18,466 nucleotides of DNA from a virus (IMGVR_UViG_2872164251_000003:1-18466), one strand, 5' to 3'; shown: positions 754 through 18,466, counted from the first letter of the stretch. Translations and numbers: made by a program. The notes: generated by a model from the sequence alone, not told the origin.

Positions 754-876
754 GCCCAGGGCAATGTTCTGCCTGTTCTGTACGGTGAAATGCGCGTGGG
801 GTCGCGGGTGGTATCTCAGGAGATCAGCACGGCAGACGAAGGGGATGGTGGTCAGGTTGTGGTGATTGGTCGCTGA
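754..876 (+). pseudogene. I: 3-prime remnant of lambda-like tail assembly gene I, truncated by IS1
   Basis: Frame starting at 754 reads AQGNVLPVLYGEMRVGSRVVSQEISTADEGDGGQVVVIGR-stop (TGA 874-876), matching the C-terminus of lambda gpI as recalled; directly precedes J as in lambda; upstream portion replaced by IS1. Confidence 0.6.
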
Positions 877-936
877 TGCAAAATGTTTCATGTGAAACCG
901 CCTGCGGGCGGTTTTGTCGTTTATGGAGCGTGAGGA

Positions 937-3900
937 ATGGGTAAAGGCAGCAGTAAGGGGCATACCCCGCGCGAAGCGAAGGACAACCTGAAATCCACGC
1001 AGTTGCTGAGTGTGATTGATGCCATCAGCGAAGGGCCGGTTGACGGTCCGGTGGATGGATTAAAAAGCGTGCTGCTGAACGGTACGCCGGTCCTGGACAG
1101 CGAGGGGAAGACAAACTTTTCCGGTGTTACGGTGGTGTTCCGCGCCGGCGAGCAGGAGCAGACACCGCCGGAGGGGTTTGAATCTTCCGGCTCAGAGACT
1201 GTGCTGGGTACGGAAGTGAAATACGACACGCCGATCACCCGGACCATCACGTCGGCAAACATTGATCGTCTGCGCCTGACCTTCGGTGTGCAGGCACTGG
1301 TGGAAACCACCTCAAAGGGGGACCGGAATCCGTCGGAAGTCCGCCTGCTGGTTCAGATACAGCGTAACGGTGGCTGGGTGACGGAAAAAGACATCACCAT
1401 TAAGGGCAAAACCACTTCGCAGTATCTGGCCTCGGTGGTGGTGGGTAACCTGCCGCCGCGCCCGTTTAATATCCGGATGCGCAGGATGACACCGGACAGC
1501 ACCACAGACCAGCTGCAGAACAAAACGCTCTGGTCGTCGTACACCGAAATCATCGATGTGAAACAGTGCTACCCGAACACGGCGCTGGTCGGCGTGCAGG
1601 TGGATTCAGAGCAGTTCGGTAACCAGCAGGTGAGTCGCAATTATCATCTTCGCGGGCGCATTCTGCAGGTGCCGTCGAACTATAACCCGCAGACGCGGCA
1701 ATACAGCGGTATCTGGGACGGAACGCTTAAGCCAGCATACAGCAACAACATGGCCTGGTGTCTGTGGGACATGCTCACTCATCCGCGCTACGGCATGGGG
1801 AAACGTCTTGGTGCGGCAGATGTGGACAAATGGGCGCTGTATGTCATCGGCCAGTACTGCGACCAGTCAGTGCCGGACGGATTTGGCGGCACGGAGCCGC
1901 GCATCACCTGTAACGCTTACCTGACCACACAGCGTAAGGCGTGGGATGTTCTCAGTGATTTCTGCTCGGCGATGCGCTGTATGCCGGTATGGAACGGGCA
2001 GACGCTGACGTTCGTGCAGGACCGACCGTCGGATAAAGTGTGGACCTATAACCGCAGTAATGTGGTGATGCCGGATGATGGCGCGCCGTTCCGCTACAGC
2101 TTCAGCGCCCTGAAGGACCGCCATAATGTCGTTGAGGTGAACTGGATTGATCCGGACAACGGTCATGAGACGGCGACAGAGCTTGTGGAGGACACGCAGG
2201 CCATTGTCCGTTACGGTCGTAACGTCACGAAGATGGATGCCTTTGGCTGTACCAGCCGGGGACAGGCGCACCGCGCCGGGCTGTGGCTGATTAAAACGGA
2301 ACTGCTGGAAACGCAGACCGTGGACTTCAGCGTCGGCGCAGAAGGGCTTCGCCATGTACCGGGTGATGTCATTGAAATCTGCGATGATGATTATGCCGGT
2401 ATCAGCACCGGTGGTCGCGTACTGGCGGTGAACAGCCAGACCCGGACGCTGACGCTCGACCGTGAAATCACGCTGCCGTCCTCCGGTACCACGCTGATAA
2501 GCCTGGTTGACGGAAATGGCAATCCGGTCAGCGTGGAGGTTCAGTCCGTCACCGACGGCGTGAAGGTGAAAGTGAGCCGGGTTCCTGACGGCGTTGCAGA
2601 ATACAGCGTGTGGGGGCTGAAGCTGCCGACGCTGCGCCAGCGCCTGTTCCGCTGCGTGAGTATCCGTGAGAACGACGACGGCACGTATGCCATCACCGCC
2701 GTGCAGCATGTGCCGGAAAAAGAGGCCATCGTGGATAACGGGGCACACTTTGACGGTGACCGGCGCGGCACGGTGAATGGTGTCACGCCGCCAGCGGTGC
2801 AGCATCTGACCGCCGAAGTCACCGCAGACAGCGGGGAATATCAGGTGCTGGAGCGATGGGACACGCCGAAGGTGGTGAAGGGTGTGAGCTTCCTGCTTCG
2901 CCTGACCGTGGCAGCGGACGACGGCAGTGAGCGGCTGGTCAGCACAGGCAGGACGACGGAAACCACATACCGCTTCAGGCAGCTGGCGCTGGGGAATTAC
3001 AGTCTGACAGTCCGGGCGGTAAATGCCCGGGGGCAGCAGGGCGATCCGGCGTCGGTATCGTTCCGGATTGCGGCACCGGCAGCGCCTGTCACTATTGAAC
3101 TGATACCGGGGTATTTTCAGATAACGGTGGTCCCGAAACTGGCTGTATATGACCCGACGGTGCAGTTTGAGTTCTGGTTTTCGGAAAAGCGGATTGCGGA
3201 TATCAGGCAGGTTGAAACCAGCGCCCGCTATCTTGGCACGGCGCTGTACTGGATAGCCGCCAGTATCAATATCAGGCCGGGCCATGATTATTATTTTTAC
3301 GTTCGCAGTGTGAACACCGTTGGCAAATCGGCATTTGTGGAGGCCGTCGGTCGGGCGAGCGATTATGCGGAAGGTTATCTGAGTTTTTATAAAGGGTTGA
3401 TCAATAAAACGCATCTCGGCAAGGAGTTGTGGACGCAGATTGATAACGGTCAGCTTGCGCCGGACCTGACTGAAATCAGGACGTCCATTACGAATGTCAG
3501 CAATGAAATCACGCAAACCGTCAATAAAACACTGGAAAATCAGAGTGCTGCAATCCAGCAGATACAGAAAGTTCAGGTTGATACAAATAATAACCTGAAC
3601 AGCATGTGGGCTGTGAAGCTGCAACAGATGAAGGACGGACGCCTTTATATTGCGGGTATCGGTGCCGGTATTGAGAATACGCCAGCAGGAATGCAGAGTC
3701 AGGTGCTGCTGGCGGCAGACAGGATTGCGATGATTAATCCTGCGAATGGCAACACAAAGCCGATGTTTGTTGGTCAGGGCGATCAGATATTCATGAACGA
3801 CGTGTTCCTGAAACGCCTGACGGCTCCGACCATTACCAGCGGCGGTAATCCTCCGGCATTTTCCCTGACACCTGGCGGACGGCTGACGGCGAAAAATGCC

Positions 3901-4416
3901 GATATCAGCGGTAACGTGAACGCGAACTCCGGGACGCTCAACAACGTCACGACTAATAAGAACTGTCGGGTTCTGGGAAAATTGTCCGCGAACCAGATTG
4001 AAGGCGATCTCGTTAAAACAGTGGGCAAACCTTTCCCACGGGACTCCCGGGCACCGGAGAGGTGGCCATCAGGGACCATTACCGTCAGGGTTTATGACGA
4101 TCAGCCGTTTGATCGGCAAATTGTTATTCCCGCGGTGGCGTTTCGCGGTGCTAAACATGAGCGGAAGAATAACAATATTTATTCGTCATGCCGCCTGATA
4201 GTGAAGAAAAACGGTGCTGAAATTTATAACCGAACGACCCTGGATAATACGCTGATATATACGGGTGTTATTGATATGCCTGCCGGTCACGGTCACATGA
4301 CGCTGGAGTTTTCTGTATCGGCATGGCTGGTAAATGGCTGGTATCCCACAGCAAGTATCAGCGATTTGCTGGTTGTTGTGATGAAGAAAGCCACTGCAGG
4401 CATCACGATTAGCTGA
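937..4416 (+). CDS. J: Lambda-like tail tip / host specificity protein J (1159 aa)
   Basis: N-terminus [34 protein letters not shown]... and most of the length match lambda gpJ as recalled; RBS gaggaATG; last ~330 aa diverge from lambda. Confidence 0.95.
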
Positions 4417-4435
4417 ATTTTATAACCCAGATACG

Positions 4436-17072: not shown

Positions 17073-17266
17073 CCGACGCCATTCATGGCCATATCAATGA
17101 TTTTCTGGTGCGTACCGGGCTGAGAGGCGGTGTAAGTGAACTGTAGTTGCCATGTTTTACGGCAATGAGAGCAGAGATAGCGCTGATGTCCGGCAGTGCT
17201 TTTGCCGTTACGCACCACGCCTTCAGTAGCGGAGCAGGAAGGACATCTGATGGAAATGGAAGCCAC
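16991..17266 (-). CDS. insA: IS1 InsA (91 aa)
   Basis: Same as copy 1 apart from one substitution (A to G near the C-terminus). Confidence 0.85.
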
Positions 17267-17321
17267 GCAAGCACCTTAAAATCACCATCATACACTAAAT
17301 CAGTAAGTTGGCAGCATTACC

Positions 17322-17330
17322 TGTCTTATG
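17322..17330. repeat. 9-bp target site duplication TGTCTTATG (right copy) of IS1 copy 2
   Basis: See left copy. Confidence 0.9.
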
Positions 17331-18466
17331 ATTCAGACACTATCGGCCGTTATCTGAGAAATATACGAGTAACTGGTAATAACACCTGCAATGGTATTGA
17401 CACAAACATTACAGCAGAAGACTCTGTCATCAGACAGGTTTATGGCTGGGTATTTGATAATGTAATGGTGAATGAAGTTGAAACCGCTTATTTAATGCAA
17501 GGGCTCTGGCACTCAAAATTTATAGCATGTCAGGCTGGAACCTGTAGAGTCGGTCTTCACTTTTTAGGCCAGTGCGTAAGTGTTAGTGTCAGCTCCTGCC
17601 ATTTCAGCAGAGGAAATTATTCTGCTGATGAAAGCTTTGGCATCAGGATTCAGCCTCAAACGTATGCGTGGTCGTCAGAGGCAGTTAGGTCAGAAGCAAT
17701 AATTTTAGACAGTGAGACCATGTGCATTGGTTTTAAAAATGCCGTCTATGTTCATGATTGCCTTGATTTGCATATGGAACAACTGGATTTAGATTATTGC
17801 GGTTCAACAGGCGTGGTTATAGAGAATGTAAACGGAGGATTTTCTTTCTCAAACTCATGGATAGCAGCAGATGCCGATGGCACTGAACAATTTACGGGGA
17901 TATATTTTAGAACGCCGACCTCAACGCAGTCACATAAAATTGTCAGTGGTGTTCATATCAACACTGCAAACAAAAACACGGCTGCAAACAATCAAAGTAT
18001 AGCGATAGAACAGTCGGCGATCTTCGTCTTTGTAAGTGGTTGTACGTTAACTGGTGATGAATGGGCTGTAAATATTGTCGACATCAATGAATGTGTTTCT
18101 TTCGATAAGTGCATATTCAATAAGCCTCTACGCTATCTTCGTAGCGGTGGCGTGTCAGTTACTGACTGTTATTTGGCTGGCATTACCGAGGTGCAGAAAC
18201 CGGAAGGCAGATACAATACGTATCGTGGCTGTTCAGGCGTACCGTCTGTAAATGGGATCATTAATGTCCCAGTTGCGGTAGGTGCCACAAGCGGATCTGC
18301 AGCTATACCGAACCCGGGGAACCTGACATACAGAGTAAGAAGCCTTTTTGGTGACCCTGCATCAAGTGGTGACAAGGTTAGTGTTTCCGTGGTGACAATT
18401 AATGTTACTCGCCCAAGCCCAGTAGGAGTCGCGCTGCCTTCAATGGTTGAGTATCTGGCCATCTGA
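17322..18466 (+). pseudogene. Tailspike C-terminal fragment (receptor-binding / putative beta-helix domain), downstream of IS1
   Basis: Frame continues exactly from the fragment before IS1 once the IS and one TSD copy are removed (...RLSY | DSDTIGRYLRNIRVTGNN...); ends at TGA 18464-18466. The ORF track call from 17147 is chimeric with IS1 sequence. Confidence 0.75.

Follow-up and report, generated by a model that had tools for sequence, protein, structure and literature searches.

The 18,466-nucleotide (nt) stretch of DNA analyzed here (IMGVR_UViG_2872164251_000003:1-18466, hereafter the window) is 100% identical to CP032513.1:718048-736513, part of the chromosome of Shigella flexneri serotype 3b strain SFL1520. 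The window was mapped by listing open reading frames (ORFs), finding repeats and reading the sequence directly, and domains were assigned by Pfam search. An earlier note on this sequence had described a lambda-like siphovirus tail module beside a P22/Sf6-like podovirus module, and had offered either two adjacent prophage remnants or a composite rearranged by insertion sequences (IS) as the explanation. Both descriptions hold together: lambda attB, between the ybh genes and ybhB-bioA, is occupied by the remains of two lambdoid prophages, which are of incompatible virion types and have been rearranged by IS elements. To the right of the window lie, in order, oac (333 amino acids, convergent with the tailspike gene), an 84-nt remnant of the Sf6 int gene, a lambda-type sib/P arm, a canonical attR (GTTCAGCTTTTTTATACTAACTTGAGCG) and ybhB-bioA-bioBFC; to the left lie pgl, ybhH and ybhJ, separated by IS1 copies. 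The att sites and the head and terminase genes of each lineage had been proposed as landmarks, and P arms and an attR at ybhB were indeed found, but no head, terminase, lysis or regulatory genes are present between bacterial pgl and ybhB.

The same DNA was reported in SFL1520 as a "fourth phage region / Sf6 remnants with intact oac" (SHI-O), flanked by many transposases, where oac confers serotype 3b, and a figure of that report displays synteny with Sf6 that is both collinear and inverted (Parajuli et al. 2019; PMC6424224). That report mentions neither a location at lambda attB nor lambda-type P arms; IS629, its split target duplication, the joint of this element with the att core and the role of the neighbouring ipaH remnant as a tandem partner are likewise absent from it. 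A full-text literature search linking Shigella flexneri, oac and ybhB returned no match. The locus itself is already known and its decay is of a familiar type; what is added here is its history at the level of base pairs.

Gene content of the two remnants

The left half of the window has the I-J-lom-stf-tfa order of the distal tail module of a lambda-like siphovirus, on the plus strand, as judged from Pfam domains, identity to lambda and synteny with the prophage of Escherichia coli FDAARGOS_944. The module begins with the last 40 codons of gene I, a lambda-type tail assembly gene (754-876) whose 5' part was removed at IS1 copy 1. Positions 754-3433 are 93.2% identical at the nucleotide level to lambda 15322-18002 (I/J), and J itself (937-4416) encodes a lambda-like tail tip protein of 1159 amino acids with all six GpJ Pfam domains (FNIII-A_GpJ, Phage-tail_3, Ig_J, Ig_J_second, Phage_Tail_Tip and Ig_GpJ_C), which is annotated as gpJ in E. 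coli relatives. Downstream are lom (4484-5083; an Ail/Lom outer-membrane protein matching Ail_Lom over its full length at 1.9e-128), a homologue of the side tail fibre gene stf (5105-6562; phage_tail_N, 5e-47), and a tfa-like gene in the tail-fibre-assembly position (6513-7136; DUF4376, with synteny as in FDAARGOS_944). On the minus strand, ipaH (7316-9079) encodes a type III secretion system E3 ubiquitin ligase of 587 amino acids with LRR_TTSS and NEL domains; it is the intact cargo of the lambda-like prophage, and its FDAARGOS_944 counterpart, ipaHa, is annotated at the equivalent position. The complete tail set (Z, U, V, G, T, H, M, L, K and I) is absent, as IS1 cuts gene I at 754 and pgl lies beyond it; gene I is uninterrupted in other S. 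flexneri assemblies.

The prophage of FDAARGOS_944 and FDAARGOS_943, of the "ipaH island" type, occupies the same site and is 98.1% identical over 754-9564, including I, J, lom, stf, tfa, ipaH and the P arm. In FDAARGOS_944 it lies between ybhC and ybhB and carries int, xis, exo/bet/gam, terminase, portal, the full tail module and ipaHa. This prophage is nearly complete and has a canonical attR at ybhB, whereas the copy in the window is cut by IS1 at gene I and has its att core fused to IS629. Between ipaH and the attachment module (~9171-9257) lies a short transposase fragment, annotated as "transposase, incomplete" in FDAARGOS_944, which is what remains of an older IS at the edge of the ipaH cargo. 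In SFL1520, a second lambda-like ipaH prophage near aspS (L013; CP032513.1:1192844-1216323) matches window positions 754-8311 at its positions 9818-17376 with 99.86% identity over 7.5 kb, a stretch that covers the 3' end of gene I, J, lom, stf, tfa and the conserved 3' half of ipaH. The aspS-side prophage is therefore nearer to the window than are the orthologous-site prophages of other genomes (99.86% vs 98.1-98.6%), which suggests gene conversion or a recent duplication between ipaH islands.

In the right half, the earlier identification of gp7/gp20/gp16-like ejection proteins and a tailspike with a P22-type head-binding domain, on the opposite strand, was upheld by Pfam, by PF26808 and by phage matches. 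These genes follow the P22-like (Lederbergvirus) order of gp7, gp20 and gp16 and then the tailspike. The gp7-like gene (14224-14802, minus strand) is truncated at its 5' end by IS629; 192 codons remain, corresponding to P22_gp7 positions 39-230 of 230, so that the 38 N-terminal profile positions are missing, and the reading frame is open right up to the IS629 end. The gp20-like gene (12808-14214, minus) encodes 468 amino acids with an Inj_translocase domain (1.7e-77). The gp16-like protein (10967-12811, minus; 614 amino acids) was itself unmatched in the Pfam search, but PF26808 (Phage_P22_gp16) is precomputed for a near-identical 613-residue product, and the protein is 89-94% identical to DNA transfer proteins of phages Sf101, Huey and others. 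Overall, the ejection genes are 89-98% identical to those of P22-like phages including Sf101, Sf6 and Huey. The tailspike gene is in three pieces: codons 1-101, the head-binding domain, on the minus strand (10530-10831; Head_binding positions 1-100 of 113, 4.9e-58; 96% to Sf6); codons ~101-246 on the plus strand (16113-16549; 98.9% to Sf6); and the C-terminal part, the Sf6 endorhamnosidase, also on the plus strand (17322-18466, stop codon at 18464-18466; 99.8% to Sf6; PDB 7sg7 and 2vbk). The 99.8% identity continues unbroken from the tailspike C-terminus through oac up to Sf6 position 16864. The homology of both halves is real and no chance resemblance, and a module-wise comparison of nucleotide identity, as had been recommended, gave 93% to lambda I/J on the left and 96-99.8% to Sf6 in the tailspike on the right. 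The earlier description had missed or understated the remainder of the tailspike on the plus strand, ipaH between the modules and the four IS copies.

Compared with Sf6 (Lederbergvirus Sf6, AF547987), identity is 98.1% in the 3' part of gp7 (gene 11) and the 5' half of gp20 (gene 12), 96-99.8% in the tailspike and 99.8% in oac together with its promoter. In contrast, the homology ends 84 nt into the Sf6 int gene, where a lambda-type sib/P arm takes over, and Sf6 gp16 has 665 residues whereas the window gp16 is a different allele of 614 residues with no nucleotide match. Because the 3' part of gp20 and gp16 are unlike Sf6 in nucleotide sequence, and because the attachment module is of lambda type, the remnant that carries oac is that of a mosaic P22-like prophage and not of Sf6 proper. 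The phages Huey and vB_EcoP-720R6, which are P22-like with a lambda-type integration cassette, resemble it in gp7-gp20-gp16, in having a tailspike and cargo, and in their lambda-type attP, int and xis (in Huey the order is tailspike, cargo, attP, a 1071-nt int and xis); they differ in tailspike specificity and cargo, lack oac and are intact isolated phages. At the SFL1520 locus, by comparison, gp7 is 5'-truncated and the tailspike is in three pieces on two strands, and no set of podovirus genes capable of forming a virion remains. No tail or ejection apparatus can be built from the locus, and the surviving functional genes are cargo: ipaH, lom and, outside the window, oac.

A divided target duplication and an inversion between IS629 copies

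Two copies of IS629 flank the ejection genes in inverted orientation. The complete copy (14803-16112, minus strand) has the features expected of this IS3-family element: a length of 1310 bp, imperfect inverted repeats of 25 bp at its ends, and orfA and orfB with an ALIL frameshift pseudoknot (15661-15777). The 3-bp target duplication typical of IS629 is also present, but split, as described below. The partial copy (9554-10529, plus strand) comprises element positions 334-1310 according to blastn against the full copy and retains its ALIL pseudoknot (9556-9672), but it lacks the left terminal inverted repeat (IRL) and most of orfA and differs by one 1-bp indel. An Rfam scan of the window revealed nothing beyond these two pseudoknots. 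The indel, at 10028-10033, breaks orfB of the partial copy into ORFs of 240 and 154 amino acids.

The minus-strand head-binding fragment of the tailspike ends in ...CAACAGTT against the right terminal inverted repeat (IRR) of the partial IS629 at 10529/10530, and the plus-strand tailspike piece begins with GTTCTATTTTCC immediately past the IRL of the full IS629 at 16112/16113. The reverse complement of 10530-10532 is GTT, as is 16113-16115; GTT is thus found on two separate pieces on opposite strands, and the 3-bp duplication of one IS629 insertion must therefore have been divided. When IS629 and IS1 are excised and the duplications collapsed, a tailspike of 623 amino acids is reconstructed that aligns over residues 1-623 with Sf6 gp14 (PDB 7sg7_A), end to end and with a handful of substitutions. 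The split GTT and the reconstructed tailspike together predict a collinear ancestral order, 'gp7-gp20-gp16-tspN-IS629-tspC (where tspN and tspC are the N- and C-terminal parts of the tailspike gene), with a second, inverted IS629 in gp7. This order was found in ten other assemblies (L021-L024, L026-L030 and L034, the last being S. flexneri 3a FDAARGOS_713, CP054892.1), which read 'gp7-gp20-gp16-tspN-IS629-tspC-oac. In all ten, no IS1 is present in the tailspike, and gene I plus the tail genes K, L, M and H are intact. From this comparison, the opposite-strand position of the ejection genes is the product of a secondary, lineage-specific inversion between the two inverted IS629 copies. The two window copies are identical except for one indel, and the crossover within IS629 is accordingly unmappable.

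Further variants of this region were observed. In nine of the collinear assemblies (L021-L024 and L026-L030), the partial IS629 has a further 55-nt deletion, between CAGA repeats just inside the IRR (e.g., in L023, at ~13125-13135 of the reverse complement); because FDAARGOS_713 (L034) and SFL1520 lack this deletion, it is a derived marker of a sublineage. In L005 (AAUSPF010000084.1, 9540-10010), window position 14231 is fused to the region just upstream of oac by a 5.4-kb deletion that takes out oac, the tailspike C-terminal pieces, the full IS629 and gp7', leaving the lambda-type attR/P arm 35 bp from the start of gp20; a strain of this type should lack O-acetylation (group 6 antigen). In L006 (ABYBMV010000137.1, 1-10034), a block running from IS629 into 'gp7-gp20-gp16 and the head-binding domain, 99.98% identical to the window, continues uninterrupted into another tailspike C-terminus, followed by gtrA/gtrB/gtr-type genes and an integrase. 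Either this is a second P22-like prophage in which IS629 is joined to gp7 in the same way, or short reads were assembled chimerically across the conserved head-binding domain.

Attachment modules and the joint between the two lineages

Lambda-type attachment modules, with a P arm and core, are found in both remnants. That of the lambda-like prophage consists of a sib/tI hairpin and an attP P arm (9366-9562, plus strand) that ends in the core CAGCTTTTTT; over 9366-9564 it is 88.6% identical to lambda 27534-27731, with the core kept only up to TTT. This P arm is almost identical to its counterpart in attR of FDAARGOS_944, where ATACTAACTTGAGCG and then ybhB follow. The second unit, beside oac, matches lambda 27534-27742 at 88.1% identity and retains the complete core (GCTTTTTTATACTAA) and B', next to ybhB; its P arm is 98.7% identical to that of podophage vB_EcoP-720R6 and 90% identical to that of the P22-like phage Huey. 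Sf6 integrates at tRNA-argW (PMC3630932). The Sf6-type integrase and attP are absent from this locus apart from the 84 nt of int, which are followed by the lambda-type P arm and by attR at ybhB. Shared lambda-type attachment specificity explains why the two phages are neighbours.

The lambda-like module also bears a scar, the 3' end of an Sf6/HK620-type integrase gene (9268-9347, minus strand; 91% to Sf6 16788-16864). The same scar of ~80 nt lies beside oac (L004 ~4475-4555), immediately to the left of its lambda-type sib/P arm, and the scar and att unit together (300 bp) are 89% identical between the lambda-like and oac prophages. The scar-bearing module seems to be an older cassette circulating among siphovirus-type and podovirus-type lambdoid phages. 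In FDAARGOS_944, the T-run of the attL core (L031 3205-3225; GCTTTTTATACTAA) is five bases long and that of attR six; either the homopolymer was misread in sequencing, or the run, which adjoins the Int overlap, truly differs by 1 nt.

The joint between the two lineages reads TCAGCTTTTTTTGCGAAGG in the window and was compared with the attR of FDAARGOS_944 (TCAGCTTTTTTATACTAAC) and with IS629 around position 334 (TCCGCTTATTTTGCGAAGG). It consists of the att sequence CAGCTTTTTT followed directly by the IS629 sequence TGCGAAGG. The window is of att type through the base before the 7-bp overlap TTTATAC and of IS629 type from the fourth overlap base on; therefore, the exchange sits in the TTT common to both, where the overlap begins on its left and where a crossover at a secondary site of the integrase (Int) is expected. 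Of the two strand exchanges, Int carries out the top-strand one first, at this same boundary, and when lambda sites with unlike overlaps recombine, the products inherit the overlap of one partner. As a refinement of the earlier description, the lineage junction is thus a lambda att core joined to an internal IS629 position and not to an IS terminus. An IS-end-mediated (transpositional) deletion was also considered as the origin of the joint and was ruled out, as the IS629 breakpoint is internal (~334). The identical joint was found by string match in nine collinear assemblies, and L034 aligns continuously across it.

The arrangement resembles the Int-promoted deletions of lambda, in which one endpoint lies at the att crossover and the other at a directly oriented pseudo-site of partial homology, with the overlap taken from one partner. 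It differs in that the candidate pseudo-site lies inside an IS and that two different prophages are joined, and catalysis by Int is here inferred. Int-promoted deletions and secondary-site recombination of phage lambda were reportedly described by Parkinson and colleagues in 1971 and by Weisberg and Landy in Lambda II in 1983.

Proposed history of the locus

We consider it likely, with a probability of about 0.8, that two lambdoid prophages integrated in tandem at attB and were later wrecked by a deletion, an IS629 inversion and IS1 events. In this history, an ipaH-carrying lambda-like siphovirus would first have lysogenized attB. A lambda-like ipaH prophage with a canonical attR directly at ybhB and no Sf6-like DNA is present in E. 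coli FDAARGOS_943/944 and in CABEFB020000003.1, and window positions 754-9564 are 98.1-98.6% identical to the attB prophages of FDAARGOS_944 and of the assembly L035, both of which have a canonical attR and no Sf6 part. A mosaic P22-like podovirus, with Sf6-type gp7, tailspike and oac and a lambda/434-type attP-int-xis cassette like that of Huey, would then have integrated at the resident attR. The expected product is the lambda-like prophage, a hybrid P-O-P' site, the oac phage, P-O-B' and ybhB; integration of the oac phage at the resident attR would explain why its own P arm, at 89% to the other, now adjoins B' and ybhB. IS629 subsequently entered gp7 and, separately and in inverted orientation, the tailspike at codon 101. 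A deletion of ~30 kb, reaching from the hybrid att core to a weak pseudo-att at IS629 ~334, would have taken the P' arm, int, the early, lysis and head genes, the first 38 gp7 codons and IS629 1-333; this step, with Int as its presumed catalyst, would have immobilized the oac phage while keeping both ipaH and oac. In the SFL1520 lineage, homologous recombination between the inverted IS629 copies flipped the block of gp7', gp20, gp16 and the tailspike N-terminus; in this lineage, too, IS1 inserted into the tailspike and an IS1-associated rearrangement removed everything to the left of gene I.

The steps do not stand on equal footing. The IS629 insertions, the inversion and the IS1 events can be read directly from the sequence and from the comparison of strains, and the architecture produced by the two integrations is strongly supported. 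Int probably catalyzed the ~30-kb deletion.

Alternative explanations

Several observations weigh against this history. No assembly with the intact tandem, and thus with the hybrid P-O-P' site, was found, and the arrival order of the two phages is the simplest one, a matter of parsimony from genomes outside S. flexneri. The IS629 site matches the att core at 8 of 15 positions, and core plus arm sites at 10-11 of 21, which is a weak match; the agreement is good only in the left half-site and TTT, where a hand count gave 8 of 10 (approximately the top 0.1% of windows). Nor does it rank first among the pseudo-att sites of IS629 and an Sf6 proxy genome, as better ones exist in the proxy. The reciprocal product, IS629(1-333)::P', was sought with a chimeric query in 5,426 complete E. 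coli genomes and with an exact pattern in JGI metagenomes and GTDB representative genomes; it was not found, a result of zero weight because the controls were empty too. Indeed, the observed joint itself is not in the 5,426 E. coli genomes or the JGI metagenomes, collections that lack this S. flexneri locus. A deletion at microhomology (GCTT.TTT) could also have occurred without Int. An Int-independent illegitimate deletion, by microhomology or slippage, that ended in the core T-run by chance is a possible but rather unlikely origin of the joint: perfect identity at the crossover amounts to just 3 nt (TTT) within the 8/10 patch, the pseudo-att is not top-ranked, and deletions abound in Shigella, the 55-nt CAGA-flanked deletion and the 5.4-kb L005 deletion being examples from this same locus. 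However, the interval of 3-4 nt to which the left breakpoint can be placed coincides with the position where Int cleaves the top strand, and the P arm is otherwise intact, a coincidence that we estimate at ~1e-3 if the endpoint was free over at least 10 kb, from ipaH to the oac-phage early genes; moreover, an arm from att with the whole overlap from the partner is the expected Int product for heterologous overlaps. Improbable in our estimation is a nested integration, in which the oac phage came first to attB, with IS629 in gp7, and the ipaH phage was then inserted by Int into the pseudo-att in IS629, so that P-O::IS629(334->) would be its attR, and IS1 or other IS events would later have removed IS629(1-333)::P'-int together with the left half of the oac phage. 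This order would give an identical right-hand junction and orientation, it calls for one rare Int event, and loss or scrambling of the left side is in fact observed. Nevertheless, in three other genomes the same ipaH prophage is found at the primary attB and has a canonical attR, which argues that it is the older resident, and the hybrid attL/attR of a resident prophage would be far better targets than an 8/15 pseudo-site; the reciprocal junction was not found either, in searches without power.

The tandem integration followed by deletion also has to be set against readings that dispute the structure itself. Misassembly across the 976-bp inverted IS629 repeats, instead of a true inversion, would explain the opposite-strand ejection genes, and inverted repeats of ~1 kb can mislead assemblers; the collinear order is, in addition, that of most other assemblies. 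Yet an independent draft, AFGW01000026.1, is inverted too (99.94% identity, 41.6-kb contig), the L005 deletion derivative is explicable from the inverted arrangement only, and MinION long reads were used in the SFL1520 assembly (PMC6424224), which leaves misassembly very improbable. The adjacency of the modules is the sole point in favor of one functional chimeric phage with a long tail tip and podovirus ejection proteins. Gene I, gp7 and the tailspike are all truncated or interrupted, the head, terminase, lysis and regulatory genes are missing, and none of 50,697 phage records has both modules; the best coverage of the window by any phage record was 31%, from Stx phages that share J and IS629. 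The anatomy of the locus already refutes such a phage, which we dismiss for practical purposes, and the earlier claim that the two modules do not belong to one virion therefore stands. A link to the divergent oac1b prophage was rejected as well, as that element lies between torT and ycmA and has no Sf6 genes.

IS1 copies and the left flank

Two IS1 copies, in direct orientation, are present in the window. Copy 1 (1-753, minus strand) belongs to a full element of 768 bp that begins 14 bp to the left of the window; its flanks are unlike (CATTTGTTG vs GCCCAGGGC) and show no target duplication, and copy 1 is on these grounds a rearrangement joint. Copy 2 (16550-17321, minus strand; 772 bp) lies within the tailspike between perfect 9-bp duplications of TGTCTTATG (16541-16549 and 17322-17330) and is a simple insertion. 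Of the features expected of IS1 (~768 bp, 23-bp terminal repeats and a 9-bp target duplication), the duplication is thus present at copy 2 and lacking at copy 1, as expected at a rearrangement joint. Copy 2 is not present in other assemblies, and both IS1 events are restricted to the SFL1520 lineage. Four additional bases at 16740-16743 (772 vs 768 bp) cause a frameshift in insB of copy 2; for these bases as for the indel in the partial IS629, a genuine inactivating mutation and a homopolymer error in the hybrid assembly are both conceivable.

On the left flank (L014 1-9064), three IS1 copies scramble the ybh region into the order ybhJ - IS1 - ybhH - IS1 - pgl - IS1, which is inverted relative to E. 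coli K-12, and ybhC, ybhD and ybhI were not seen there. Because this region is scrambled by IS1, the SFL1520 locus lacks attL and anything to the left of gene I.

Implications

The apparent clash of two tail systems at this locus is ordinary prophage decay in an IS-rich pathogen, a worked example of that process and no hybrid virus. The comparison of strains also reveals a naturally occurring polymorphism, an inversion between IS629 copies, and a variant from which oac has been deleted, and it describes a probable natural case of Int acting on a pseudo-att inside an IS element. The serotype-determining oac of some 3a/3b strains lies at lambda attB in an immobile remnant and not in an inducible Sf6 at argW, a placement that bears on serotype stability and on serotyping schemes by polymerase chain reaction or whole-genome sequencing that assume an argW/yfdC context. 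We give roughly even odds to the full proposal that the oac of these 3a/3b lineages came via an undescribed mosaic P22-like phage, not Sf6, which sat in tandem at attB and was locked in place by an Int deletion into an IS629 pseudo-att. If this is true, attB would be a third integration site of Shigella serotype-converting phages, besides thrW and argW, and a site-specific recombinase would have taken an insertion sequence as its secondary target, welding two prophages together.

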